A stretch of DNA of 24,000 bases. Origin: Chloroflexota bacterium (GTDB lineage: Bacteria > Chloroflexota > Dehalococcoidia > Lucifugimonadales > Australimonadaceae). Numbering within the stretch: position 1 is the first letter of the stretch; the number at the start of each line of letters is the position of its first letter. A program made the translations under genes and the position numbers. This document shows, piece by piece, positions 8,751 through 23,956 of the stretch. Under the pieces are notes generated by a model, which worked only from the letters and a program-made list of their open reading frames with translations, was not told the DNA's origin and searched no databases. The stretch lies in contig JAYNIL010000005.1 in the NCBI GenBank assembly GCA_038109085.1, positions 11,869-35,868 on the forward strand. The letters are read 5' to 3'.

Positions 8751-9452
8751 ATGCCCGCCGTCCGCGAACTCCTTGAGCTCCAGGGTATCGACGTTGAGCT
8801 GGCCGCCGGGCGCAGGCGCCTGGCGCAGATCGCCGAGGCGCTCGCCGATGACCAGGAGGTGCGCGCGCTTCGCGCCGAGGCGGTGCGCCTCACCAAGGCA
8901 GCCGAGGGCGTGGACGGGCGCCAGAAGGAGCAGGAGGAGGCCATCGCTTCCCTCTCGGCGCGCATCGAGGCGGCTGAGACCAGGCTGTTCGGCGGCACCG
9001 TCACAAGTCCCCGCGAGCTCACGGACCTGCAGACCGACATCGCCATGCTCCAGCGCCAGCGCGGCGAGCACGAGGACGTGCTGCTGACGGTGCTGGAGGA
9101 GGCCGAGGCGGCCCAGAAGGCGCGCCGGCGAGCAATGGGCACTTACAAGAAGGCCAATACCGAGCGCGAGGCGCAGACCGAGACGCTCCGGGACGAGCAA
9201 TCAGCACTCCAGGCCACGTTGGCGGGTCAGGAGGCGGCGCGGGCTACATGCACCGCCGCTCTCCCGCCCGCAGAGCTGGGCCTGTACGAGCAGGCGCGCA
9301 AGGCCAACGGCGTGCGCGGGGCCGCCCGCATGCGCAACGGCACCTGTGAGAACTGTCGCGTCGGCCTGCCCACCCGCCTGGCCCAGGAGGTACGCACCTC
9401 CCCCAATCCCGTCCGCTGCCCCTCTTGCGGGCTGATTCTGCTGGACGCCTGA
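8751..9452 (+). CDS. COG1579-type coiled-coil protein with C-terminal C4 zinc ribbon
   Basis: 233-aa ORF. Contains a long Ala/Glu/Arg/Gln-rich coiled coil, then CENCRVGLP...CPSCGLIL (CxxC-N21-CxxC). Confidence 0.8.
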   Translation: MPAVRELLELQGIDVELAAGRRRLAQIAEALADDQEVRALRAEAVRLTKAAEGVDGRQKEQEEAIASLSARIEAAETRLFGGTVTSPRELTDLQTDIAMLQRQRGEHEDVLLTVLEEAEAAQKARRRAMGTYKKANTEREAQTETLRDEQSALQATLAGQEAARATCTAALPPAELGLYEQARKANGVRGAARMRNGTCENCRVGLPTRLAQEVRTSPNPVRCPSCGLILLDA

Positions 9453-10834
9453 TGCGCGCCCTTGGCTACTTCACCATCGAGCAGGGGCCGGAAACGGGCC
9501 CGCGCGGGGCCAAGACCCTCGCGAATGCCTTCCAGCGCTATTGCGGCGAGGAGCGCCACCAGCCCATCGCCACCTACCACGACGTGGACGGCTCCGACGC
9601 ACGCCCGCGCTGGACTGAGATGGTGGAGGGGATCCGCGCCAAGGGTGCGGGTTACCTGGTGGTGGTGCCCCATGCCGGGCACCTGGGTAAGTCCCTGGAG
9701 GAGCAGGTGGGCCGGGTTCTGGAGCTGGACCGGCTCAACTGCTCGGTGGCCTGCACCGATGCGGAGTGGCCCGACCCGCTCCAGAATGCGCTGCACCTGC
9801 ACGACACGGGTTCGGCGTCCTCGCGCCGTGGCGAGCGCATCCGCCAGGCGATGCGGGCCAAGGCGGCCAATGGGCTGGGTCTCGGCAAGCCGCCCTACGG
9901 CTACCGGCTGCTGTGGGACGGGTCGTTTGCCGTGGTGCCCCAGGAGGCCGAGGTGGTGCGGGAGATATTCCGCCTCTACGGCGAGGAGGACGGCGGCGGC
10001 GTGCGAGCCATCGCCCAGGAGCTGAACCGCCGTGGTCTGCGCACCCGATCGGGCAGGGCGTGGAGCATGGTCACCGTGCGCGACCTGCTGCGCAACACTG
10101 CCTACATCGGAACGTACCGCCGCTTCGGCCTGCGCATTCCCTCAACCTACCAGGCGCTGCTGAGCCCCGCCGAGTTCCGCAAGGTGCAGGACCGCATGGA
10201 CGCGCGTAGCCCCGGCCGCCGGCACGCCAAGGCTGAGCCGTTCCTGCTCTCTGGGCTGCTGTATTGCGGGCACTGCGGCCAGCGCATGCTGGGTGTGGTG
10301 CGCCGCCAGAGCTGGCAGCGCAAGGGGTTCGGGCGGGTGCGGGGTGAGTACCGCTACTACCAGTGCCAATCGCGCATCAACCTGGGCAAGTGCGCCTACC
10401 GCACCACCCGCGCTGCGCCGCTGGAGGAGACGGTGCTCTCCCAGGTGCGCGAGCTGATGCCCGAGGAGCGAGCGCTGGAGGCCTCGGACGGGCAGGGGCT
10501 CGCCGCCGACGGCATGGCCAAGGCGGACGCACGGCTGCGCTCGTTGGACAAGCGCGCCGTTGAGCTGGTGCGCCAGGCCGCCACGGGCGCAGCGCCACTG
10601 GCTCAGCTACGCGCTGGCCTGTTGGGCGTTGAGCAGGAGCGCCGTGCCCAGCGCACGCGCCAACAGCGCATGGCGGCGGGCGAGAACGGCGTGCGCGCCC
10701 TTATGGAGGAGCAGCGCGACAAGCTCCACTACCTGTGGGAAGACATGGACGTCGCCGAGCGCCAGGAGGCCCTGCGCACCCTGGTGGAGAAGGTCGTGGT
10801 GAAGGACGGTGCAGCACGGGTGGTGCTGCGCTAG
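9452..10834 (+). CDS. Large serine recombinase homolog (resolvase-like + recombinase + zinc-ribbon + coiled-coil) with substituted catalytic residues
   Basis: ORF 9425..10834. The likely start is ATG 9452, overlapping the upstream TGA (TGATG). The recombinase domain (GKPPYGYRL...VVREIFRLY...AIAQELNRRGLRTRSGRAWSMVTVRDLLRNTAYIGTY) and zinc ribbon (LLYCGHCGQRM...YRYYQCQSR...GKCAYR) are clear. The N-terminal domain reads MRALGYFTIEQG and AGHLGK where YxRVSTxxQ and DRLSR are expected. Confidence 0.8.
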   Translation: MRALGYFTIEQGPETGPRGAKTLANAFQRYCGEERHQPIATYHDVDGSDARPRWTEMVEGIRAKGAGYLVVVPHAGHLGKSLEEQVGRVLELDRLNCSVACTDAEWPDPLQNALHLHDTGSASSRRGERIRQAMRAKAANGLGLGKPPYGYRLLWDGSFAVVPQEAEVVREIFRLYGEEDGGGVRAIAQELNRRGLRTRSGRAWSMVTVRDLLRNTAYIGTYRRFGLRIPSTYQALLSPAEFRKVQDRMDARSPGRRHAKAEPFLLSGLLYCGHCGQRMLGVVRRQSWQRKGFGRVRGEYRYYQCQSRINLGKCAYRTTRAAPLEETVLSQVRELMPEERALEASDGQGLAADGMAKADARLRSLDKRAVELVRQAATGAAPLAQLRAGLLGVEQERRAQRTRQQRMAAGENGVRALMEEQRDKLHYLWEDMDVAERQEALRTLVEKVVVKDGAARVVLR

Positions 10835-12424: not shown

Positions 12425-12533
12425 TGAGGCCCGCAGGCACACCGCGGAGAGCAGGGGCCACCGCCCACCCACATCCCTCATCGAGGCGGGCGGTGGCAGG
12501 GGAAAGGTGTCGCGGGGCGCGCTGCGGGCCTCA
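12425..12533 (-). other. Structured intergenic RNA element: 12-bp long-range helix enclosing a 12-bp hairpin
   Basis: On the minus-strand transcript, UGAGGCCCGCAG (12533-12522, including the heliorhodopsin TGA) is perfectly complementary to CUGCGGGCCUCA (12436-12425). Inside it, CCACCGCCCGCC (12496-12485) pairs with GGUGGGCGGUGG (12469-12458). That pairing has one G-U on this strand, which would be an A-C mismatch on the other strand. Confidence 0.35.
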
Positions 12534-13304
12534 GCCCGTCGGGGCCAGCGTTGCCCCGAAAACCTGCCAGGCCAGCGCCGACTTGGCGGTGAGGCTCAGG
12601 AGGATGTAGGTGGACTCACCGAACAGGTAGGAGCGCCACGGCCCAACCCGCCGGTACTGGAGCACCATGTTCACCGCGAAGGCGTTGAAGAAGGCGAAGA
12701 GCGAGAAGAAGATCGCGTACACGAAGGCCGGAGGCTCCGCCGCCACGCCAGGGCTCCACAGGTAGATGGCGATGGCGGCCCACGGCGCCGCGCCCACCAG
12801 CACGCCGAAGTTATAGGAGAGCCAGCGCGGACGTCCGGGCGACTCGTAGTGCTCCATCAGCAGGCCAAACAGGATCATCCCTGCGTTGGCGGCCCCCAGG
12901 CCCACCAGCGCGGCCACATCGCCGATGCCCGTGAGCAGAGCGATGAGCAGCACCATGAGCGTGGAGCTCACGGAGTACTCGATCCAGCGCGCGTAGTTGC
13001 GGCCCTTGGCCAGGTTCCCGGTGTACCAGCCGAACACCCCCGGCAGCACCAGCACCGCGTGGGCGGCGGCGGAGAGCAGCAGGAAGCCCGCCACGCCCCA
13101 CGCCAGCGAGGCATCGAACAGGTGCGTCACGGTGGGCTCCCCCACGCCGGGCGGGCCGCTCATGAAGGTGGCGAACACCGGTAGGGTGAACTCCGTCGCC
13201 AGGGCGAGCACCACCACGGCCTGGGCCAGGTGGAACGCGCCCATCACCCCGTTATACAGGCGCAGGCGCCCCTGGGCCCGCTGCGTTATCGTCGTGGCGG
13301 TCAT
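12531..13304 (-). CDS. Heliorhodopsin (7-TM retinal protein)
   Basis: ORF 12531..13370. The preferred start is ATG 13304 (GAGGAGGA SD, 6-nt spacer), giving 257 aa. It aligns along its full length with heliorhodopsin 48C12 as I recall it. Matching segments are LYNGVMGAFHLAQAVVVLALATEFTLP, SGPPG, ARWIEYSVSSTLMVLLIALLTGIGDVAALVGLGAANAGMILFG, FVYAIFFSLFAFFNAFAV and YILLSLTAKSALAWQVFGATL (Schiff-base Lys). Confidence 0.9.
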   Translation of the reverse strand: MTATTITQRAQGRLRLYNGVMGAFHLAQAVVVLALATEFTLPVFATFMSGPPGVGEPTVTHLFDASLAWGVAGFLLLSAAAHAVLVLPGVFGWYTGNLAKGRNYARWIEYSVSSTLMVLLIALLTGIGDVAALVGLGAANAGMILFGLLMEHYESPGRPRWLSYNFGVLVGAAPWAAIAIYLWSPGVAAEPPAFVYAIFFSLFAFFNAFAVNMVLQYRRVGPWRSYLFGESTYILLSLTAKSALAWQVFGATLAPTG

Positions 13305-13366
13305 CCTCGTCCTCCTCGTTCTCACGCCCATCGCGTTCATCGTACCGACCAGCGGCCAAGCTGCCC

Positions 13367-14839
13367 TCATGGGGCAACTTGAGCATCGTCAACCCCTGCA
13401 GCAGCATCAATCTCCTCCGCCCGGCGCACCAGTGAGTGCGCCATGCCGTTGAATACGAATCGGTGCACACCGAGCAGCACAGCCCAGTAAACAACTCCGG
13501 ACAGACCTTTCGGAGCCCACCAAGAACGCTGGCGCAGCACCGACCCGCCGTCCGGGCCCCGCTCAACCTCCATTTCCAACCACGCCTCGCCGGGCAGGCG
13601 CATCTCGGCGCGCAACCGCAGCAATCGGCCCGGCTGGACGGCCTCCACGCGCCAGAAGTCCAGCTGTGCGCCGGGCTCGAGGGCAGGGCGGGGGTGGCTT
13701 GTGCGTCGCAGACCCGGCCCGCCCACCAGCCGGTCCAGGGCCCCGCGTAGCCGCCAGCCAAAATCCCAGTACCAGCCGTTGGCACCGCCTACTGAGGCGA
13801 TGGCTTCGAATAGCCGCTCCGGCGGGGCCATGCAGCGCATCGAGCGGTGCTCCACTATCAGCCCGCGGGAGGACTGGGTGCGCAAGGTAAGCGCACCCAG
13901 GGCTGGCATTGGCTCGCTAGCCCCGAAGGCCGGAGGCCGCAGCCCGTCCAGCGCCACCTGCACCGCCTCCTCGTACCCCAGGGGCCGCACGCTGGGGAAG
14001 AGCGCTGCCGTGTCATTGGGTTCGCGCACCACCACCTCGTTCCGCAGCCCCTCTACGATGTGTTTGGCGAACCCGGCGCGCAGGGGTGTGACCAGCCGCA
14101 CCCAGTAGGAGGAAAGGCGCGGGGTCAGTACCGGCACCCGCACCATCCGCCGGCGGAGCCCGCGCACGCTAGCATAGCGGGTCATCATCTCACCATATGT
14201 GAGCACCTCACTGCCGCCCACCTCCACCACGCGGTGCCCCGCGAAAGAGACATCCATACCCTTGACCAGGTAGGTGAGCATGTCGTCGAGGCCGATGGGC
14301 TGGACCCGTGTGTAGACCCAGCGGGGACACACCATGACGGGCACCCTTTCAGTCAGGTAGCGCACCATCTCGAAAGGCAGCGAGCCTGCGCCGACCACGG
14401 GGCCCGCTCGCAGCTCCAGCACCGGCACGCCCGCCTCGGCGAGCGCCTCGCCCGTCTCGTGACGAGACCGCAGATGCGGGCTGAGCGAGGGGCCGGGGGC
14501 TCCCAGAGCGCTCAGATACACGATGCGGCTAACCCCCGTGGTGGCAGCGGCCGTGGCGAAGGAGCGGGCCGCGTCCAGGTCCCGTTGGTGAAAATCGCTC
14601 GCCCCGGCGCCCATGCTGTGCACCAGGTAGTAGGCCGCGTCTATTCCCTCCAGAGCGCGTGCCACCGTCGCCGCCTCGCGGACGTCACCTTGGTGCACTT
14701 GCACCTGTGAGCCCCAGGGTGCGTGCACCAGGCCGGAGGGGTCACGGGTGATCACGCTCACCTCATGCCCCGCTTCCAGCAGCAGCGGCGTCAGCTTCCC
14801 GCCTACGTAGCCCGTTGCGCCCGTCACTAGAACCCGCAT
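13367..14839 (-). CDS. Atypical SDR (NAD(P)H-binding, NmrA/epimerase-like) fused to a C-terminal DUF2867 domain
   Basis: 490-aa ORF. N-terminus is MRVLVTGATGYVGGKL (Rossmann GxxGxxG). C-terminus has GANGWYWDFGWRLRGALDRLVGGPGLRR...DFWRVEAV...LRAEMRLPGEAWLEMEV, typical of DUF2867. SD AAAGGTGA lies 7 nt upstream. Its TGA overlaps an upstream in-frame ATG of the heliorhodopsin ORF (ATGA at 13367-13370). Confidence 0.85.
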   Translation of the reverse strand: MRVLVTGATGYVGGKLTPLLLEAGHEVSVITRDPSGLVHAPWGSQVQVHQGDVREAATVARALEGIDAAYYLVHSMGAGASDFHQRDLDAARSFATAAATTGVSRIVYLSALGAPGPSLSPHLRSRHETGEALAEAGVPVLELRAGPVVGAGSLPFEMVRYLTERVPVMVCPRWVYTRVQPIGLDDMLTYLVKGMDVSFAGHRVVEVGGSEVLTYGEMMTRYASVRGLRRRMVRVPVLTPRLSSYWVRLVTPLRAGFAKHIVEGLRNEVVVREPNDTAALFPSVRPLGYEEAVQVALDGLRPPAFGASEPMPALGALTLRTQSSRGLIVEHRSMRCMAPPERLFEAIASVGGANGWYWDFGWRLRGALDRLVGGPGLRRTSHPRPALEPGAQLDFWRVEAVQPGRLLRLRAEMRLPGEAWLEMEVERGPDGGSVLRQRSWWAPKGLSGVVYWAVLLGVHRFVFNGMAHSLVRRAEEIDAAAGVDDAQVAP

Positions 14840-14939
14840 GGATAGGTCACCTTTCGTCCGGACCTGGCACCCGTCGTGGCCGGTGCCAGCCTCAACTCAT
14901 GTCTGCATGGTATACGTGGGGCGTTGGGCCCTTTCGGGT

Positions 14940-15098
14940 CCCAATAAATCCGAAGATCAACTACGCAGCGAGGCTATGCCCTCAGGAGAATGTTATCCAA
15001 GCTGGTTTGTTCGCATTGATGTGTTTTGATTGAAACAAATAGGAATTATGTGTATAAAAAAATCCACAGTCAAGTCCTGGGCGTCGTAAGGAGTCAAC
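14940..15098. promoter_or_regulatory. AT-rich divergent control region between the SDR-DUF2867/heliorhodopsin operon and the B12-XRE regulator
   Basis: This is by far the most AT-rich stretch of the window. It contains inverted repeats TGTTT-N6-AAACA (15022-15037) and TTTGTT...AACAAA (15006-15011 / 15034-15039), and ATGTGT twice (15019-15024, 15048-15053). A weak minus-strand promoter candidate is TTGGAT-N18-TAGCCT (15000-14971). Confidence 0.45.
15030..15058 (+). promoter_or_regulatory. Strong sigma70-like promoter TTGAAA-N17-TATAAA for the B12-XRE regulator
   Basis: TTGAAA is at 15030-15035 and TATAAA at 15053-15058, with exactly 17-nt spacing. It is followed ~30 nt later by AAGGAG (15088-15093) and ATG 15099. 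The TGTTT-N6-AAACA inverted repeat overlaps the -35 element. Confidence 0.55.
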
Positions 15099-15976
15099 AT
15101 GCCAATTTCCTCCCACCGCCAACTCCCTTGCCTCACCAACCCGCTCGTCGTCGCCGACGCTACGAACGTGACAGGGGTGATGAAACGGGCCGTCGATTCC
15201 AACCCGCGCATGGAGGCTACATACGTGGATCTCCTGTGTCCGGCGATATAGGTGGTGGGTGAGCGTTGGGCGCCAGGGGCGCCATCACTCCGGAGCACCT
15301 CTCTACGGACCCAGCCCGGCGTCGAATGGAGTCGCTGCGTGAGCGCGTCCCCACTGCCGCGAGCATCGGTCGCTCTGTGCTGGTGGGGGTGGTGCAGCCG
15401 GAGCAGCAGGAGATGGGCGCGCGTATGGTTGCGGAACTGCTGGTCCTAGACGGCTGGTCAGTACATGTTTCGGCCAACCTGCTTGCGCAGGAGTTTGCCA
15501 CCCACGCCCAGTCCCTTTCTCCCGATCTAGTGGTCCTGTCCGTGTTGCTGGAGGGCTCCGCCCCCCAGGCCCGGCGCACAGTGGGTTTACTGCGTGAGAG
15601 GACGCCGGGCACCCCGGTGTTGGTGGCGGGGTTATCCGGACAAGAAATCAGCGCTGATGCCCACGCAGGTGACGAACGTGAGGTGCGTTGGCTCGCCCGC
15701 GACCTGGCGGGCACCTCAGCAAATGAGTACAACCTTGAGGCATTGCTGACTTGCGTAGGAAACGTAGAGCTCGATGCGCGCTGCGCGCGCGGCTGGGAAC
15801 GACAACAGCTGGCCCAGGCGGTGGGCATAGACCGGGCGTATTTGTCGGGATTGGAGAACGGGCGGAAGAATCCCACCCTGGGTATCCTTCTCCGGGTGGC
15901 TGCGGCGCTCAAGGTGCCGGTGGCACGGCTGATGGAGGAGAGGATACCAGTGGGCGGTACACTTTCCCGAAACTGA
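15099..15976 (+). pseudogene. CarH/LitR-like B12-binding module (helical bundle + Rossmann B12 domain) fused to a C-terminal XRE-type HTH; reading frame interrupted
   Basis: ATG 15099 with a near-ideal SD opens a 50-codon frame: MPISSHRQLPCLTNPLVVADATNVTGVMKRAVDSNPRMEATYVDLLCPAI. That frame hits TAG at 15249-15251 and continues as VVGERW. The rest (track ORF 15266..15976, TTG start) is in another frame: ...GAITPEHLSTDPARRRMESLRERV...SVLVGVVQPEQQEMGARMVAELLVLDGWSVHV...PDLVVLSVLL...VLVAGLSG, then the HTH GWERQQLAQAVGIDRAYLSGLENGRKNPTLGILLRVAAALKVPVARL. Joined, the two pieces reconstitute a B12-binding_2-like bundle (PAl..vGerW....EH). Confidence 0.55.
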
Positions 15977-16180
15977 TTGACGGGTTTCCCATCGCGGATG
16001 TGAGCCTCATGAGAGCAGCGGAACAAACACAGATGGCCCGGCTGGCGGCCAGGTTCTAAGGCAAACACCCCCTGTTGTAAGTGCCCGCCGGAGAGGGCGT
16101 CACGCAGGTGCGGATCGAGTTAGAGCGAGCTCGGTCGTAGGGATCTCACCGGCTCAGGGGGATCAGAGTGAGGAGTTCGA

Positions 16181-17494
16181 ATGAGCACGTGCCGAGAGCG
16201 TGAACTGGAGAGGCGGGCGACGGGGAGGCGAATCGCCGTGGTGGGTGGCGGTATCAGCGGCATTGCTGCGGCGCTGCGCGCCCGGGATAGTGGGCACGCG
16301 GTGACGCTCTTCGAGGCGGAGCCAATCTTGGGTGGTCACGCGCGCACGCTCTCCGTGGAGAGCGCGGATGGCCCGAGCAGCCTGGACACCGGCTTCCTCG
16401 TTTATAACGAGGCGACCTACCCCGGCTTCACCGGATTCCTCCAGCGGCTGGGGGTGCAGACACAGCGTTCGGACATGTCCTTTGGCGCCAGTTGCCCACA
16501 GCATGGGTTCGAATACGGGAGCCGTGGGCTGCGCAGCATGCTTGCCCAGCCGTCCAACCTGCTGCGCCCCGGCAGGGTGCGCATGTTGGCGGACTTCCTG
16601 CGTTTCTACCATGCGAGTGGGGCGGCGCTCCGTGAGCCCGCAGCAGCACCCGCCACCTTGGGTGGGCTGCTGGCCGATGGGTACGGCAACGAGTTCCGGG
16701 ACCACTTCTTAGTGCCGCTGATCTCCGCGGTTTGGTCTATGCCCGCAGGGCGTGTTGGGGACTTCCCTCTGGCGTTCCTGCTCCGCTTCCTGGCCAACCA
16801 CGGGCTGCTCTCAGTGGGCGGACGGTTGCCCTGGCGCACTGTGACCGGGGGCTCAAGGTCCTACGTCGATCGCGCTGCTGTGCTGCTGGGTGACGGGGTT
16901 CGCCTGGGGACCCCGGTGCGTACAGTGCGCCGTGACAGGTTAGGGGTCAGCGTGGTGAGCGGTTCGGGAACGGAGCGATTTGACGCGATCGTGCTCGCCA
17001 CCCACGCCGACGTTTCGCTTCGCCTGCTGGAGCGTCCGTCGTCGGTGGAGCGACGCGCACTAAAGGCGCTGGCGTACTCGCCCTCCCGGGTGGTCACCCA
17101 CACCGACGCGGGGCTGATGCCCCGCCGGCGCGCGGCGTGGTGTTCGTGGAACTACCGTTCAACATCCTGTGGCGATGGCGATTCTGGCGTGTCGGTGACC
17201 TACCATCTGAACCGGCTCCAAGGATTGAAGGTTCGGCAGAACTACTTCGTTTCGGTGAACCCCAGCAGTGAGCCTGCGCCGGGGACGGTGCTGGACGAGA
17301 CAGTGATGTCCCACCCGCTTTACACAGAGGCCTCGGTGGGTGCGCAGGCTGCGTTGCGGTCGGTGGGTGGCGCGTTGCGGACCGCCTACGCAGGGGCCTA
17401 CCTGGGCCACGGCTTCCACGAGGACGGCTACCGCTCCGGCGTCGAGGCGGTCGACGCATTGGCCGGCTTGACCGCGTTGGTGGGGGCGGCCTGA
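16181..17494 (+). CDS. FAD/NAD-binding amine-oxidase / phytoene-desaturase-like oxidoreductase (COG2907 type)
   Basis: 437-aa ORF with GAGGAG SD. Dinucleotide motif is RIAVVGGGISGIAAALRA...VTLFEAEPILGGHA. It is the usual partner of DUF1365. Its stop overlaps the next start (TGATG at 17492-17496). Confidence 0.85.
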   Translation: MSTCRERELERRATGRRIAVVGGGISGIAAALRARDSGHAVTLFEAEPILGGHARTLSVESADGPSSLDTGFLVYNEATYPGFTGFLQRLGVQTQRSDMSFGASCPQHGFEYGSRGLRSMLAQPSNLLRPGRVRMLADFLRFYHASGAALREPAAAPATLGGLLADGYGNEFRDHFLVPLISAVWSMPAGRVGDFPLAFLLRFLANHGLLSVGGRLPWRTVTGGSRSYVDRAAVLLGDGVRLGTPVRTVRRDRLGVSVVSGSGTERFDAIVLATHADVSLRLLERPSSVERRALKALAYSPSRVVTHTDAGLMPRRRAAWCSWNYRSTSCGDGDSGVSVTYHLNRLQGLKVRQNYFVSVNPSSEPAPGTVLDETVMSHPLYTEASVGAQAALRSVGGALRTAYAGAYLGHGFHEDGYRSGVEAVDALAGLTALVGAA

Positions 17495-18240
17495 TGGACG
17501 CACCGCTGCTGCTCACCGGCACGCTGACCCACCAGCGCTCTGGCCCTGCCGCCGGTGGGTTCTCCCACGCAACGCGCTACCTGCTCACAGACCTGGCCTC
17601 ACCCCCCTCCCGCCGATGGGGCCCACTATGGGGTGGGGAGGGTCTGGGGCTCTACGGCCTGCGCTCGCAGCATCTGTGGGACGGGGCCACTGGGTTCGCG
17701 GCCATCCGTAAGGGTCTCATCGGGTCTGGTGAGCGGGTGCTGCTGCTCACTCAGCCTCACCTGCTGGGCTATGTATTCAACCCCCTCTCGCTCTACTTGG
17801 TGGTGGAGGACGGGCCCCCGGTGGAGCGCGCCCGCGTGCGCCGAGTGGTGGCCGAGGTGAGCAACCGCCACGGCGGCCGCCACCGCTATGACCTCACCGC
17901 AAAAGCCCCGCTGCCGGGCCGGTTCGAGGCGTCCTTCTCCAAGGAGTTCTACGTCTCGCCGTTCCAACCGATGGAGGGTGAGTACCGTCTAGAGCTGACC
18001 TTCGGGGGGGAAGAGCTGAGAGTGCAAGTCAGCTTCCAGGGATTGGGAGGGGAGGGGCTGGATGCCCGGCTGAGCCTGCATGCGGAGCCCTTCACCGGCA
18101 ACGCGCTGGCCCGCACAGCGCTGCGTCAGCCTCTCACCCCCTGGGCCACCACCGCTAACATCTACGGGCACGCGGTAAGGCTGGCCCTGCGGGGCGCACG
18201 CTACCGGCGGCCATCCGAACGGGAGCAGCACGGTGGCTAG
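17494..18240 (+). CDS. DUF1365 family protein
   Basis: 248-aa ORF with GTLTHQRSGP..GFSHATRYLLTDL, LLTQPHLLGYVFNPLSLYLV, AEVSNRHGGRHRYDL and KEFYVSPFQPMEGEYRLEL, matching the DUF1365 pattern. Confidence 0.8.
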   Translation: MDAPLLLTGTLTHQRSGPAAGGFSHATRYLLTDLASPPSRRWGPLWGGEGLGLYGLRSQHLWDGATGFAAIRKGLIGSGERVLLLTQPHLLGYVFNPLSLYLVVEDGPPVERARVRRVVAEVSNRHGGRHRYDLTAKAPLPGRFEASFSKEFYVSPFQPMEGEYRLELTFGGEELRVQVSFQGLGGEGLDARLSLHAEPFTGNALARTALRQPLTPWATTANIYGHAVRLALRGARYRRPSEREQHGG

Positions 18241-19006
18241 GCGCAGGGTTTGGCGGGGCCAGCACGTGTGGGTCGTGGGCGGCGGCAGTGGCATTGGGCG
18301 CGGGGTCGCCGCGGCTCTCGCTGGTCGAGGGGCAGCGGTGACTGTGAGTGCACGGTCGGCGGACGCGCTCCGCCACCTTGCCGCGGAGGTAGCGGACGAC
18401 GGCGGGGCGGTTTTCCCGCTCCCTCTTGACGTAGGGGACGTCCTCGCCCTGCACGCCGGATGGGAGCGACTTTGCGCCGATCGCGGCGTGCCGGATGCGG
18501 TGATCTACTGCGCCGGTGCCTGGGAACCCGCCTCCGTGGTCAAGCTCGACTACGCTCTGGACACGCAGGTGTCGGCCAACTTCACTGGACTCGTGCGTGT
18601 GGCGGCGTTGGTTGTCCCAGCGATGCGCGAGCGTGGCGAGGGACTGTTGGTGGGGTTCTCCTCCGCCAGCGCTCTGCTGGCCTTGCCCCGTGCCGAGATA
18701 TACGGAGCGACCAAGGCCGCGGCCACTTACTTCCTGCGCTCCCTACGTTTGGACCTGCGCCGTTCGGGGGTGCGGGTGGTGACGGTGCACCCGGGGTTCG
18801 TACGCACCCCACTGACGGAGCACAACGATTTTGCAATGCCCGCGCTTCTGGAGCCGGAGCAGGCGGTGGCGGCCGTGCTCAGGGGCATCGAGCGAGGGCG
18901 TACCCAAGTGGACTTCCCTGGCAGGCTTCTCTGGCCCATCAAGCTCGCCGGTGCGCTCCCCCGTCCTGTGGGTGAGTGGCTCATCGCGCGTCTATTCAGG
19001 AGGTAG
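18233..19006 (+). CDS. Short-chain dehydrogenase/reductase
   Basis: 257-aa ORF. GTG 18233 overlaps the DUF1365 stop by 8 nt. Contains VVGGGSGIGRGVA and the catalytic YGATKAA. Confidence 0.8.
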   Translation: MARRRVWRGQHVWVVGGGSGIGRGVAAALAGRGAAVTVSARSADALRHLAAEVADDGGAVFPLPLDVGDVLALHAGWERLCADRGVPDAVIYCAGAWEPASVVKLDYALDTQVSANFTGLVRVAALVVPAMRERGEGLLVGFSSASALLALPRAEIYGATKAAATYFLRSLRLDLRRSGVRVVTVHPGFVRTPLTEHNDFAMPALLEPEQAVAAVLRGIERGRTQVDFPGRLLWPIKLAGALPRPVGEWLIARLFRR

Positions 19007-19008
19007 AC

Positions 19009-19440
19009 ATGGCCCGCTACACAGCCGTTATCCGGTCGGCGCGCAGCGCCTTCGACACCTTTGCCTATATGGCGGACTTTACCAACGCGGCCGCATGGGA
19101 CCCCGGCGTACTCGCCGCGCGGCGTCTAGACGAGGGCCCGGCGGCGATCGGGTCCCGGTTCGCCCTCGATTTCCGATTTGGAGGCTCAACCGTTCCACTC
19201 GAGTACAAGATCCTGGCGCTGGAGCCTGGACGTGCGGTCACCCTTCGCGCAGAGCGCCCCGCGTTCATCGTGGAGGACGTGATCACCGTCGAGCCCGACA
19301 GTTCCGGAGCGCTGGTGCGCTATCAGGCCACCATGAGCCTGCGCGGGCCGATGCGGCTGCTGTCCCCGGTGCTGGGATTGGTGTTCCGGCGCGGGGCCGC
19401 CCAGGCGGGTCGCTCGCTGGCTCGGCAGTTGGGAGGGTGA
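19009..19440 (+). CDS. SRPBCC (START/Bet v1/polyketide-cyclase-like) small protein
   Basis: ORF 18976..19440. The preferred start is ATG 19009, 6 nt after AGGAGG, giving 143 aa beginning MARYTAVIRSARSAFDTFAYMADFTNAAAWDPGV, typical of SRPBCC ligand-binding proteins. Confidence 0.7.
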   Translation: MARYTAVIRSARSAFDTFAYMADFTNAAAWDPGVLAARRLDEGPAAIGSRFALDFRFGGSTVPLEYKILALEPGRAVTLRAERPAFIVEDVITVEPDSSGALVRYQATMSLRGPMRLLSPVLGLVFRRGAAQAGRSLARQLGG

Positions 19441-19442
19441 GG

Positions 19443-20792
19443 GTGCCCTCCGCTGCGATCTGGTGGGCCCGAACGGACCTACGCTTGGAGGACAACCCGG
19501 CGTTGGCAGCCGCACTCGCCACCGGGTTGCCGGTCCAGGCAGTTTTCGTCTTAGAACCGGAGTTGTGGGCCCCGGAGCGCACAGGCCCTCACCGGTCGTC
19601 GTTCCTTGCCGATGCCCTCCGGGACTTGCATGCCGCGATTTGCGGTCTGGGCGGTGGGTTAGAGGTCATCCAGGGACCGCCTGCGCGAGCGATCGGGGGA
19701 CTCGCAGTGGCGATGGGGGGCGCTCCGGTCTTCACTCAGGCGGGGCATTCGCCCTATGCACGCCGTCAGGAGGCCGCCGTCGAACGGGCCGCCGGGTTGG
19801 TGCGAGTCCCGCCTGCAGCCGTCGCTGCGCCGGGGGTCATCACCCGGGATGATGGCACCCCGTTCACCTTGTTCGCAGCGTTCCATCGGCGCTGGAACGT
19901 CCGCCTGGGCACACTGCCCGAGCCCGCGCCATCCCCCTTGCCCGGACAGCTGTTGGCCGGTGATGCGGCGGGACTCGCCTCACTCCCCCGCCAGGAGCAG
20001 GGCGCGCGGTGCCCCGCCTCCCGCGTGGAGGCGGGGCACCGCCTCCACCGATTCTCAAGCGGCCCCACGCCCCCTGCACACCGCTACCTCAGAGACCGGG
20101 AGCGATTGGACGGGGCCGGAGGCTCCGCGCTCTCACCCTACCTGCGGTTCGGGCTACTGTCCGGCCTCGAGGTGCTGCGCGCCGGGGTGGCAGCACTCGC
20201 GTCCGCGCCGGCTCGATCCGCTGCCACCAGCGCGGAGGCCTGGTTGCGCGAGAACGCGTGGCGAGAGCACCTCGCGGCGCAACTCGCAGCGTGGCCCCAT
20301 CTCACCCGCGCCAATCACGACGCACGGATGGACCGGATCGCCTGGCGCGATGACCCTGATGGTCTTCGCGCCTGGCAGGACGGACGCACCGGCTACCCAC
20401 CCGTCGATGCGGCGATGCGCGAGCTGTCCGCGAGCGGGTGGATCAGCAACCGTGCCCGGATGCTTGCTGCCTCGTTCCTCGTCAAGCACCTGCTCATCGA
20501 TTGGAGGAAGGGTGAGCGCCACTTCAGGCGCCTGCTAGTTGACGCAGAGCCTGCCGCCAATGCCCTTGGCTGGCAGCAGGTAGCCGGATCAGGGCCCGGT
20601 GCGCAACCATGGTTCCGGGTGCTGAACCCGCTGGCGCAGGCCGAGCGCTTCGATCCGGACAACCGTTGGGTGCGGCGTTGGGTACAGGAAGCAGGTTCCG
20701 CTGAGTCAATCGCCCCACTGGTGGAGCATAGCTCAGCCAGGGAACGCGCGATCAGTGTGTACCGTATGGCCATGCGTGGGGAGAGGAAATGA
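19443..20792 (+). CDS. phr: Deoxyribodipyrimidine photolyase (class I CPD photolyase / cryptochrome family)
   Basis: Only the C-terminal 449 codons of track ORF 18831..20792 are real. GTG 19443 sits 5 nt after GGGAGGG and gives VPSAAIWWARTDLRLEDNPAL. Also present are SPYLRFG, TGYPPVDAAMRELSASGWISNRARMLAASFLVKHLLIDWRKGERHF and DAEPAANALGWQQVAGSG...PWFRVLNP. Confidence 0.9.
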   Translation: MPSAAIWWARTDLRLEDNPALAAALATGLPVQAVFVLEPELWAPERTGPHRSSFLADALRDLHAAICGLGGGLEVIQGPPARAIGGLAVAMGGAPVFTQAGHSPYARRQEAAVERAAGLVRVPPAAVAAPGVITRDDGTPFTLFAAFHRRWNVRLGTLPEPAPSPLPGQLLAGDAAGLASLPRQEQGARCPASRVEAGHRLHRFSSGPTPPAHRYLRDRERLDGAGGSALSPYLRFGLLSGLEVLRAGVAALASAPARSAATSAEAWLRENAWREHLAAQLAAWPHLTRANHDARMDRIAWRDDPDGLRAWQDGRTGYPPVDAAMRELSASGWISNRARMLAASFLVKHLLIDWRKGERHFRRLLVDAEPAANALGWQQVAGSGPGAQPWFRVLNPLAQAERFDPDNRWVRRWVQEAGSAESIAPLVEHSSARERAISVYRMAMRGERK

Positions 20793-21008
20793 ATGGATGA
20801 ATGGTAGTGACATCGGGACGCGGATGGAGAGCGAGCGCCCCCGCATGGGCGTGAGCGCATGCCTGCTGACCCAGCAAGCACCCGCTACAAAGGCGGTCAT
20901 ATGGCCTATGGCTTCCTGCTGAGCACTCTCGCGCCCTAGGACGAGTGGGTGCCGGAAGCCCTCTGTGGTAGCCTCCCGCTGTCACCCCCCCCCGCTGGAG
21001 GTTCGCGC

Positions 21009-22327: not shown

Positions 22328-22562
22328 GCTCGCCTCCCGGCGCGGTGTGCGCTGGGCGCATCATACCCCCGCGTAAAATTGTTGTACGGATCAGCTCACG
22401 GTCAATGCGCGCCAGGTGTTGGGGCTGGGGGCAGGGCAGGACCCGGCGCGGTACGAATACGCCGATAGGTGCGCGCCGGAGAATAGCCGTGTCTAGGCAC
22501 CAATCCGCTCACCCCCCCGGCGCGTATGCGCTATGTGAGGGGCTTTCGCCCGGAGGCGTCCA

Positions 22563-23153
22563 TTGAACCGGCGGGAGGCCCTCACCGACACGGAGCTGGC
22601 GGCGCTGGTGGCCGCGGGTGACGAGGAGGCGCTGGCGGAGCTGTACGGGCGCTACGGGCGCATCGTCTACTCCATGGCCATGAGCTCGCTGCGCGAGCCC
22701 TCCGGCGCCGAGGACGTGACCCAGGAGGTGTTCGCCGCGCTGTGGGTGCGGGCCGGGCGGTTCGACGGTGAGCGGGGGATATTCCGCCACTGGTTCCTGC
22801 ATCTGGCTCACAACCGCATCGTGGATGAGCTGCGACGCCGAAAGCGGGCGGCGCGGTTCGGAGAGGAACTGCCCGACCCGGTATCGGGCGCAGGCCCGGT
22901 GGCCGGGTCGAACACCGCCGACGAGGCGGTGCGAGCGGTGCTCTTCGGCTCGGCGCGTGAGGCGCTGGAGCGCCTGCCGTCCGAGCAGCGCCAGGCTATC
23001 GTGCTGGCCTATCTGGAAGGGGCTACCCAGCAGGAGATATCCCAGCGCACGGGCGCTCCGCTGGGGACGGTGAAGACACGGCTGCGGCTGGGGTTGATGA
23101 AGCTGCGGGCGCACCTGATGCTCCCCCAAGGGACGGAGGGAACGGACGCGTGA
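22563..23153 (+). CDS. ECF-type RNA polymerase sigma factor (SigK-like)
   Basis: 196-aa ORF with a TTG start 6 nt after GGAGG. Region 2 is AEDVTQEVFAALWVRAGRFD...FRHWFLHLAHNRIVDELRRRK. Region 4 is LPSEQRQAIVLAYLEGATQQEISQRTGAPLGTVKTRLRLGLMKLR. Confidence 0.85.
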   Translation: MNRREALTDTELAALVAAGDEEALAELYGRYGRIVYSMAMSSLREPSGAEDVTQEVFAALWVRAGRFDGERGIFRHWFLHLAHNRIVDELRRRKRAARFGEELPDPVSGAGPVAGSNTADEAVRAVLFGSAREALERLPSEQRQAIVLAYLEGATQQEISQRTGAPLGTVKTRLRLGLMKLRAHLMLPQGTEGTDA

Positions 23154-23956
23154 GTGATTCCCGGCAGGAATGGGATGAGCTGCTCCCGGCCTACGCGCTG
23201 AACGCGCTGGAAGGCGAGGAGTTGGAGCGGCTTGAGGCGGCCCTGGAGGCTGACGCCTCGCTACGCGCGCGCCTGGCTGAGTACCTGGAATCCACCACGT
23301 GGCTCGCCGGTGCCTTCTCCCCACTTGCCCCTCCCGCCGCGCTGGAGCCGCGCATCCGCCGGGTGGTGCGCGCACTGCCGGTCTCCCTCTCGGCTCGGCG
23401 CGTTCGCGCCCGGCGCTCATGGCTGCCGTGGGCCGCAGCCGCGGTGCTGGCGCTGGCCGTGGGCGTGCTGGGCGGTGCCACCGCCTTCCAGCTGCACTCG
23501 GTGGACCAGCTCCAATCGCAGATGCAGGACCTGGCCTCTGACGCAGCGCAGACCGAGCAGCGCCTCCAGGAGCAGCGGGAGGTGACGGCGTGGGTGGCCC
23601 AGTCCGCCGTGACCCCGGCGGCGGTGCGCTCCGTGGACAGCTACGCCGAGCCGGACCCCGCGACGGACTACCCCTGGGGGATGCTCGTCACTAAGCCCGA
23701 CGGCTCGCGGGTGCTGATGATGCTCAACCTACCGGTGCTGGCGGCGGGCGAGGTGTACCAGGTGTGGCTGTGGGACGATGCGGGGGAGGCGGCCCGGAGC
23801 GTCGGCCACTTCTGGCCGGATGAGGACGGCTATGCGTTGGCGCATCTGACCATGCCTGCGCTGGACACCATCCACTGGCTAAGCGTGAACCGGGCCAAGG
23901 GAGGCGGGACGGCGCGTCCCTCGGGCGAGCCGGTTCTGGTGGGGACGGTGCGCTAG
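23150..23956 (+). CDS. Membrane-anchored anti-sigma factor (RskA-like)
   Basis: 268-aa ORF with a GTGA overlap onto the sigma gene. Contains the N-terminal anti-sigma helix region (LLPAYALNALEGEELERLEAAL), one TM segment (WLPWAAAAVLALAVGVLGGATAF), and an extracytoplasmic RskA-like domain (VYQVWLWDD...). Confidence 0.8.
   Translation: MSDSRQEWDELLPAYALNALEGEELERLEAALEADASLRARLAEYLESTTWLAGAFSPLAPPAALEPRIRRVVRALPVSLSARRVRARRSWLPWAAAAVLALAVGVLGGATAFQLHSVDQLQSQMQDLASDAAQTEQRLQEQREVTAWVAQSAVTPAAVRSVDSYAEPDPATDYPWGMLVTKPDGSRVLMMLNLPVLAAGEVYQVWLWDDAGEAARSVGHFWPDEDGYALAHLTMPALDTIHWLSVNRAKGGGTARPSGEPVLVGTVR

Follow-up and report, generated by a model that had tools for sequence, protein, structure and literature searches.

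In Rhodobacter (Cereibacter) sphaeroides, the last two steps of furan-fatty-acid synthesis require UfaD and UfaO, which are both necessary and sufficient for them (Lemke et al., PMC7380195). UfaD (RSP1091), an NAD/FAD-binding, phytoene-desaturase-like protein, forms an 11-methyl conjugated diene, and UfaO (RSP1090), a DUF1365 protein, closes the furan ring using O2, converting 11Me-10t,12t-18:2 into 9M5-FuFA (PMC7380195). In vitro, UfaD is inactive on an unbranched 18:1 chain (PMC7380195). The methylase UfaM (RSP2144) is encoded elsewhere than RSP1091-1087, and RSP1089, RSP1088, and the short-chain dehydrogenase/reductase (SDR) RSP1087 are dispensable for the furan-fatty-acid chemistry (PMC7380195). 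Here, we describe a related locus in a 24,000-nucleotide stretch of DNA (the window) from a Chloroflexota bacterium of the family Australimonadaceae (GenBank assembly GCA_038109085.1, contig JAYNIL010000005.1, positions 11,869 to 35,868). It consists of five genes, which encode a UfaD-like flavoprotein, a UfaO-like DUF1365 protein, an SDR, an SRPBCC protein, and a photolyase.

Clusters of this kind have been described in the context of light and singlet oxygen. The core σE-ChrR regulon of R. sphaeroides comprises phrB, cfaS/ufaM, RSP1087, RSP1088, RSP1090, and RSP1091, and in Pseudomonas syringae phrB, an SDR gene, an amine oxidase gene, an RSP1090 homologue, and cfa share one locus (PMC5507510, PMC7074977). 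The Pseudomonas cluster of phrB, SDR, FAD-oxidoreductase, and ufaM genes is induced 25-33-fold by light via LitR-type regulators (PMC9758184). From this literature, defence against light and singlet oxygen by a flavoprotein, a DUF1365 protein, an SDR, and a photolyase is established knowledge, and what the present locus adds is incremental: it is a variant, specific to its lineage, of a photo-oxidative-stress cluster that was already known. An earlier note on this DNA, made from the sequence alone, had placed the flavoprotein-DUF1365 pair in the singlet-oxygen regulon together with phr, which is documented (PMC5507510, PMC7074977), and had tied the two proteins, UfaD and UfaO, to furan-fatty-acid synthesis, which is correct for RSP1091 (NAD/FAD) and RSP1090 (DUF1365) (PMC7380195). 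We consider it probable (roughly 0.6) that the five genes constitute a photo-oxidative-stress operon that combines furan-fatty-acid tailoring with an accessory SDR/SRPBCC pair and a photolyase, and that, formerly light-repressed, is by now probably expressed constitutively.

Operon architecture and encoded proteins

The five open reading frames (ORFs) all lie on the plus strand and span positions 16181-20792 of the window, which has a G+C content of approx. 70%. The ufaD and ufaO genes overlap by 1 nt in the sequence TGATG (17492-17496). The SDR gene starts with GTG at 18233 inside ufaO, whose stop codon TAG occupies 18238-18240, and the overlap is therefore 8 nt; gaps of 2 nt separate the SDR gene from the SRPBCC gene (19007-19008) and the latter from the photolyase gene (19441-19442). 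Read by eye, the sequence has a purine-rich, Shine-Dalgarno-like stretch 6-12 nt 5' of each of the five starts. A consensus scan detected no promoter-like site within the operon, and terminator-like sites are at chance level (3 seen, 3.4 expected). The five-gene operon proposed in the earlier note is thus borne out, every junction coordinate included, and Pfam assigns all five proteins to the families that the note had named; an NCBIfam search of the five yielded nothing more specific. After the photolyase gene, no terminator was found, as the segment 20785-20950, with the 156 nt that follow the gene, folds no better than shuffled sequences (z +1.27). The transcription unit may end before the FabG-like gene at 20949 or include it.

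The arrangement is found well beyond this genome. In the sister species (G001), ufaD-ufaO-SDR-SRPBCC-phr occur in the same order at 63-80% identity, and four genomes from three other genera of the family (G007, G008, G022, and G023) share the order of the first four genes at 33-51% identity. On the metagenome contigs L006 and L007, an intact regulator gene, a 60-amino-acid ORF, and ufaD-ufaO-SDR-SRPBCC lie head to tail; the first junction is a 4-nt overlap and the second a 43-nt gap, after which the overlaps match those of the window. On marine contigs from Tara, too, genes for amine oxidase, DUF1365, SDR, and SRPBCC follow one another in this order and overlap. Because gene order and overlaps recur in relatives at 33-80% identity, the arrangement is conserved and not due to chance, and UfaD-UfaO-SDR-SRPBCC is a conserved module, present in five genera of the family, whose association with the gene island described below is family-wide. 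Of the DUF1365, SRPBCC, and photolyase genes, whose co-occurrence the earlier note had suggested analysing, the first two go together in the ufaO-bearing genomes of the family, and the photolyase gene was seen joined to them in this genus only. In comparisons with the sister species, the five genes have dN/dS values of 0.12-0.23, which indicates that they are maintained by purifying selection. The G+C content at third codon positions (GC3) is 0.76-0.82 in the block from 13367 to approx. 22300, which comprises the island and its right flank, and 0.87-0.94 in the rest of the window.

The first gene (16181-17494, plus strand) encodes a UfaD-like FAD-dependent flavoprotein of 437 amino acids, a candidate fatty-acyl desaturase. 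It matches PF01593 (Amino_oxidase, 3.6e-21) and PF13450 (NAD_binding_8), carries a GxGxxG motif, and has the LkcE amine oxidase as its best PDB sequence match, over the full length (4.8e-32). The dN/dS value of this gene versus the sister species is 0.12. For a wider comparison, 80 named loci from Actinomycetota, Alphaproteobacteria, and a few other groups were compiled. With the flavoproteins encoded beside DUF1365 genes in these loci, the UfaD-like protein shares 39-48% identity in alignments that cover at least 50% of its length. The second gene (17494-18240, plus strand) encodes a UfaO-like DUF1365 protein of 248 amino acids and directly follows the UfaD-type flavoprotein gene, as is the case in 78 of the 80 named loci. 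The protein matches PF07103 over profile positions 1-231 of 235 (1.4e-44; 153 bits, with a cut-off of 25), is the product of the only DUF1365 gene in the genome, and is 30-43% identical to its named-locus homologues in other phyla. At these identities, the flavoprotein and the DUF1365 protein are homologous to the fatty-acid-modifying pair, as had been proposed. In a cross-phylum alignment of 19 sequences, the UfaO-like protein retains all 21 invariant columns, and within the family, UfaO identity is 33-41%. By sequence, no solved relative was found. The AlphaFold2 model (pLDDT 83, pTM 0.83) predicts a β-barrel with C-terminal helices; a Foldseek search of the PDB returned no match at E ≤ 0.001, and there is a weak calycin/FABP/nitrobindin-like likeness, with a TM-score of approx. 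0.45 on the target.

The last gene (19443-20792, plus strand) encodes a class I CPD-photolyase-like protein of 449 amino acids. It matches DNA_photolyase (8.3e-29) and FAD_binding_7 (1.7e-58), its best PDB match is the Thermus thermophilus photolyase 1iqr (1.8e-65), and its NCBIfam scores fall under the equivalog cut-offs. A single FAD_binding_7 match makes it the only member of the cryptochrome/photolyase family in the genome. At the position of E. coli W384 (window 20559-20582), the protein reads GWQQ; the sister species has GWQH, and other genera of the family have GWQW. Since the genome has no second gene of this family, the change from Trp to Gln implies either that the residue is dispensable here or that photorepair is altered. 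That the photolyase gene shares one operon with the lipid genes, as the earlier note had it, holds for the sister species as well.

The methyltransferase and the accessory pair

In 66 of the 80 named loci, a CMAS gene lies within 1.3 kb of ufaO (a phr gene lies within 10 kb in 20 of the 80). The earlier note had reported that the CFA-synthase-like methyltransferase is absent and that the SDR and the SRPBCC protein have taken its place. The operon indeed contains no such gene. However, a search of the whole assembly (1.74 Mb, 96.7% complete) identified one CMAS gene on contig C37 (G000:C37:10388-11602), which starts 17 nt 3' of a weakly FA_desaturase_2-like gene (the pair spans L003:9286-11602). 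The C37 pair is connected with the module by clusters arranged as desaturase-like, CMAS, CMAS, UfaD, UfaO, which two further families of the order carry (L024 and L025). A tree was built from 54 CMAS sequences, with a second version by FastTree; in it, the C37 protein and its family orthologues share one clade with all ufaO-adjacent CMAS proteins, including those of Bradyrhizobium (SH-aLRT 99); the tree does not include a biochemically proven UfaM, and the Bradyrhizobium neighbours stand in for Rhodopseudomonas palustris RPA2569. E. coli Cfa clusters (99) with a second family paralogue that is absent from this genome, and the second CMAS of the actinobacterial clusters forms a third clade. Each ufaO-bearing genome searched has a CMAS of the UfaM clade (7/7 within the family, 4/4 elsewhere in the order). 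Given its place in the ufaO-linked clade, the methylase is not missing but, like that of R. sphaeroides, encoded apart from the operon.

The SDR gene (18233-19006, plus strand) encodes a classical SDR of 257 amino acids (adh_short, 9.6e-35) with GGGSGIG and YGATK motifs, which is probably NADP(H)-dependent. Its top NCBIfam models, PRK07024 and PRK06101, also rank first for the SDR from the marine four-gene module, and it is 33-42% identical to SDRs encoded beside UfaD-UfaO-CMAS clusters versus 26-31% to unrelated SDR paralogues. An SDR is also a core member of known clusters, as exemplified by RSP1087, PSPTO_1119, and PME6630. The SRPBCC gene (19009-19440, plus strand) encodes an SRPBCC/Polyketide_cyc2 protein of 143 amino acids (PF10604, 2.1e-14), a putative binder of hydrophobic ligands. 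A search of 60 relatives found strong orthologues (E ≤ 1e-23) in exactly the six ufaO-bearing genomes among the 36 of the family. A profile search retrieved at least 159 homologues; in every context examined, the SRPBCC gene adjoins an SDR gene, and in a Conexibacter-type genome the SDR-SRPBCC pair stands alone. None of the 80 named loci contains an SRPBCC, heliorhodopsin, or B12-XRE gene.

A contig of a Streptosporangiaceae metagenome-assembled genome (L126) is particularly informative. Its operon runs MerR/LitR-like, extracytoplasmic function (ECF) sigma factor, RudS, amine oxidase, DUF1365, CMAS, SRPBCC, SRPBCC, SDR, divergent from a photolyase gene, and forms a compact, "complete" light-defence cluster that would be useful for experiments. 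As CMAS, SRPBCC, and SDR genes occur together there, the SDR-SRPBCC pair is accessory and coexists with the methylase instead of substituting for it. In view of this, of the C37 CMAS, and of the regular presence of SDRs in such clusters, the replacement suggested in the earlier note is not supported. Since RSP1087 is not needed for synthesis, we propose that the SDR and the SRPBCC protein may bind and reduce oxidised furan-fatty-acid derivatives.

The distribution of the CMAS gene bears on what the module makes. UfaM-clade CMAS genes are present in 31 of the 36 family genomes and ufaO in 6 of 36, and thus the CMAS also has a role of its own, independent of UfaD and UfaO. The four-gene module has no CMAS gene within it or nearby, either in the five family genomes or on marine contigs, UfaO is divergent even within the family (33-41%), and the strict co-inheritance of the SRPBCC gene with the module suggests that its product makes an essential contribution. 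These observations would fit a pathway in which UfaD and UfaO, uncoupled from the methylase, work with the SDR and the SRPBCC protein to yield another oxidised lipid, such as a non-methylated furan, a keto or hydroxy fatty acid, or a quinone or carotenoid derivative. We regard such a product as possible but on balance improbable: UfaM-clade CMAS genes are found in all ufaO-bearing genomes searched, R. sphaeroides makes its furan fatty acid with an unlinked ufaM (PMC7380195), UfaD does not act in vitro on an unbranched 18:1 chain (PMC7380195), and the L126 operon joins CMAS, SRPBCC, and SDR genes with UfaD-UfaO. Synthesis of a furan fatty acid from a methyl-branched chain is the product that we favour.

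The upstream island and the loss of its regulator

Upstream of ufaD lies a pseudogene (15099-15976, plus strand) of a regulator that consists of a B12-binding part (cap and Rossmann domain) and an XRE-type helix-turn-helix (HTH). Its intact homologues of 283 amino acids (P0008-P0010) have a B12-binding_2 four-helix cap with the motif Wx9EH, a Rossmann B12 domain with the motif ExHxxG, and a C-terminal HTH. In the window, the remaining ORF for the B12-binding and XRE-HTH parts covers 15266-15976; the cap, encoded in a different frame (15099-15265), is cut by a TAG at 15249-15251, a frameshift is located near 15279, and Gln replaces the His of the ExHxxG cobalt-ligand motif (EQHELG in the homologues). 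The copy of the sister species (P0011) is frameshifted too. Only a handful of homologues of this regulator exist among 5.8 billion proteins, and we know of no experimental work on the B12-XRE family.

Two smaller ORFs have decayed alongside. A tblastn search with the L006 product revealed a relic (15958-16119, plus strand) of the conserved 60-amino-acid ORF that lies between the regulator gene and ufaD in relatives; it has 43% identity over 54 residues and two in-frame stops, whereas L006 and the sister species (L019) keep the ORF intact. On the minus strand, tblastn identified a relic (14854-15000) of a Zn-ribbon ORF of 51-53 amino acids (CPRC...CLQCG) that heads a divergent DUF2867-heliorhodopsin operon in relatives; the relic has an in-frame stop and has lost Cys residues, and L005 and L006 have the ORF intact. 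Decay has therefore reached all of the 1.3-kb regulatory block, and the structural genes on either side are intact. Across this block (15001-16000), the G+C content falls to 0.615.

Between the divergent transcription units lies an AT-rich region (15022-15073) with a leftward TTGACT-17-CATAAT, found by consensus scan, and a rightward TTGAAA-17-TATAAA whose -35 is covered by an inverted repeat. A 100-bp segment with the leftward TTGACT-17-CATA[A/C]T and the inverted repeat is kept in the window, L005, L006, and L019, and may act as a divergent control region. To its left, the minus strand carries a gene for an NAD(P)-binding protein with a DUF2867 domain (13367-14839, 490 amino acids, by Pfam) and, overlapping it by 4 nt, a heliorhodopsin gene (12531-13370; PF18761, 5.5e-90), both members of the island; the same strand also has a MetE-like gene. 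A DUF2867 gene is found near the module in five related genomes and near UfaD-UfaO-CMAS clusters in five actinobacterial loci, and a heliorhodopsin gene adjoins the module in L006, L007, L020, and L023. On L006 and L007, the unit is divergent from Zn-ribbon, DUF2867, and heliorhodopsin genes and has no photolyase gene; in G007, G008, G022, and G023, the B12-XRE regulator, phr, heliorhodopsin, and DUF2867 genes are nearby in varying arrangements. A homology between the SRPBCC and DUF2867 domains, which would give the island a second SDR/SRPBCC pair, was considered and is not claimed (hhalign probability 1.3%, E 0.039). In the window, a serine-recombinase homologue (9425-10834) abuts the island.

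A further relative sheds light on the regulator. The contig L005 has flanking genes 88-96% identical to those of the window and lacks the ufaD operon; the slot after its intact regulator gene holds a TudS-DUF1722 gene (L005:10849-11841) for a RudS-type tRNA s4U desulfidase. RudS-type genes have been described in light-responsive operons alongside genes for LitR and photolyase (PMC11417400). The presence of such a gene in the slot of the ufaD operon suggests that the regulator carries interchangeable, light-related cargo. An ImuB/DnaE2-type error-prone polymerase cassette (PHP/DNA_pol3_alpha and IMS) adjoins the light island in L005 (897-6200), together with an SRAP gene, and in L006 (17280-20852); the window lacks the cassette at the equivalent position, where it has the serine-recombinase homologue.

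According to the layout kept in relatives, the ancestral unit would have had the B12-XRE regulator and the 60-amino-acid ORF as its first genes and the five genes as its distal part, and would have been driven from the divergent promoter shared with the Zn-ribbon/DUF2867/heliorhodopsin operon. As this promoter is shared, the whole island was probably light-controlled. With the regulator block decayed in this genus, the five genes are probably constitutive, transcribed from the retained upstream promoter. The earlier note had missed the decayed B12-XRE block directly upstream, which sets the likely regulation. Decay of a regulatory block with its structural genes kept offers a clean natural case of lost light control in a small genome.

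Stress-dependent control might have survived by another route. Downstream of the operon follow a FabG-like SDR gene, a MOSC gene, and, 1.8 kb away, an ECF sigma/RskA pair (22563-23956). Instead of using the old regulator promoter, the five genes might have their own promoter in the decayed leader, possibly read by this pair after the σE-ChrR model, and would then still be stress-inducible. Many named loci have ECF sigma genes beside their UfaD-UfaO-CMAS clusters, with RskA-like partners in two, and the sequence GATC-N19-CGTA lies 42 nt 5' of the ufaD ATG (16113-16139). However, this sequence is not conserved 5' of ufaD in L006 or L019, the ECF/RskA pair is also present in L005, which has no operon, and absent from the islands of other genera, and the anti-sigma factor is of the RskA type, not the ChrR type. 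For these reasons, we consider such a separate, stress-inducible promoter unlikely. As for the sequence itself, GATC-N16-20-CGTA was seen once, against 1.28 occurrences expected by chance, and an ECF-type promoter 5' of ufaD was therefore rejected as evidence. Separately, AATCC-N16-CGTAT occurs at 22502-22529, approx. 35 nt 5' of the ECF sigma start, and could be an autoregulated ECF promoter.

The decay might also have reached the operon itself, which would then be an unused remnant like its regulator. Three adjacent regulatory ORFs are pseudogenes, the GC3 of the block is below that of flanking genes, the close relative L005 does without the operon, and the photolyase has lost a conserved Trp. 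Against this, the five ORFs are intact with their coupling retained, dN/dS values are 0.12-0.23 versus the sister species and L006, every invariant DUF1365 residue is kept, and the photolyase is unique in the genome. An operon in decay is accordingly very improbable, and we return to a functional, probably constitutive unit.

Proposed function and comparison with known systems

In the function that we propose, the unlinked UfaM-type methylase on C37 would supply a methyl-branched monounsaturated acyl chain, which the UfaD-like protein would desaturate to a conjugated diene; from this, the UfaO-like protein would form a furan fatty acid, closing the ring in an O2-dependent step. Furan fatty acids scavenge singlet oxygen and radicals in the membrane. 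The SDR and the SRPBCC protein may form an accessory pair that binds and reduces lipid species derived from the pathway, and the photolyase would repair UV lesions. Several points weigh against this reading. The C37 CMAS is connected to UfaD and UfaO in this genome by analogy only, and its desaturase-like neighbour has a weak Pfam match (27 bits) and no sequence relative in the PDB, and its identity is tentative. The UfaO-like protein is only 30-43% identical to its homologues in other phyla, and we know of no residue-level mechanism for the UfaO family. The photolyase has lost a substrate-contacting Trp, the term "light-controlled repressor" is borrowed by analogy from CarH/LitR, and the decayed 1.1-kb leader could have given rise to a new promoter.

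To our knowledge, furan-fatty-acid genes have been studied in few Proteobacteria only. The compact, conserved UfaD-UfaO-SDR-SRPBCC module extends their range to a Chloroflexota-type family and marine metagenomes, it sits in an island with heliorhodopsin and an unstudied family of B12-XRE regulators, and it provides two candidate accessory proteins, the SDR and the SRPBCC protein, for the furan-fatty-acid pathway. A bolder view may be formulated, of which we are doubtful: the SDR-SRPBCC pair would be an unrecognised accessory arm that captures and reduces the reactive dioxo-ene products of singlet-oxygen-quenching furan fatty acids, the island (B12-XRE photoreceptor, Zn-ribbon, NAD-binding/DUF2867 protein, heliorhodopsin, and module) would be one monoderm light-defence regulon, and the function of heliorhodopsin would be tied to the protection of membrane lipids.

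Among known systems, the RPA2569-2571 cluster of R. palustris (ufaM-ufaO-ufaD) and the actinomycetotal and alphaproteobacterial clusters encode homologous UfaD (39-48%) and UfaO (30-43%) proteins and CMAS proteins of the same clade. They differ from the present locus in that the methylase gene adjoins ufaO (the 66 of 80 loci mentioned above) and that SRPBCC, heliorhodopsin, and B12-XRE genes are absent.

RSP1091-1087 of R. sphaeroides (ufaD, ufaO, GPH symporter, RSP1088, SDR) resembles the operon in having the flavoprotein and DUF1365 genes as its first two genes and an SDR gene in the same operon. In both systems, moreover, the methylase is unlinked and the photolyase belongs to the same stress response (PMC7380195, PMC5507510, PMC7074977). 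In contrast to the operon studied here, RSP1091-1087 has a symporter and the lipoprotein-like RSP1088 instead of an SRPBCC protein, and the photolyase gene lies beside ufaM (ufaM-phrA) and not in the ufaD operon. Regulation differs as well: R. sphaeroides uses the ECF factor σE with the anti-sigma factor ChrR, whereas the ancestral regulator here is a B12-binding XRE protein, the nearby anti-sigma factor is of the RskA type and not of the ChrR type (ZAS and cupin), and the pair is unlinked to the module in other genera. The organism studied here is also probably a monoderm Chloroflexota.

The intact B12-XRE homologues share the cap (Wx9EH) and the Rossmann B12 domain (ExHxxG) with CarH and class I LitR, the AdoB12 photoreceptor repressors, and like them are found at a divergent promoter of photoprotection genes. 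CarH and class I LitR have an N-terminal MerR domain, whereas the B12-XRE proteins have a C-terminal XRE HTH. In the window, the stop, the frameshift, and the His-to-Gln change leave the regulator non-functional; in relatives, likeness to a CarH/LitR-type regulon is a matter of architecture, with the regulator intact in L006.

The LitR (PplR/PmlR) cluster of Pseudomonas, which corresponds to P. syringae PSPTO_1121-1116, likewise unites photolyase, SDR, flavoprotein, and furan-fatty-acid genes in one locus, and its induction by light proceeds through a repressor of the B12-binding-domain type (PMC9758184, PMC5507510). The regulators are nevertheless distinct: in Pseudomonas, it is a MerR-type class II LitR that works with a LOV protein and is B12-independent, whereas the regulator of this island, dead in this genome, carries its XRE HTH at the C-terminus of a CarH-like B12 module.

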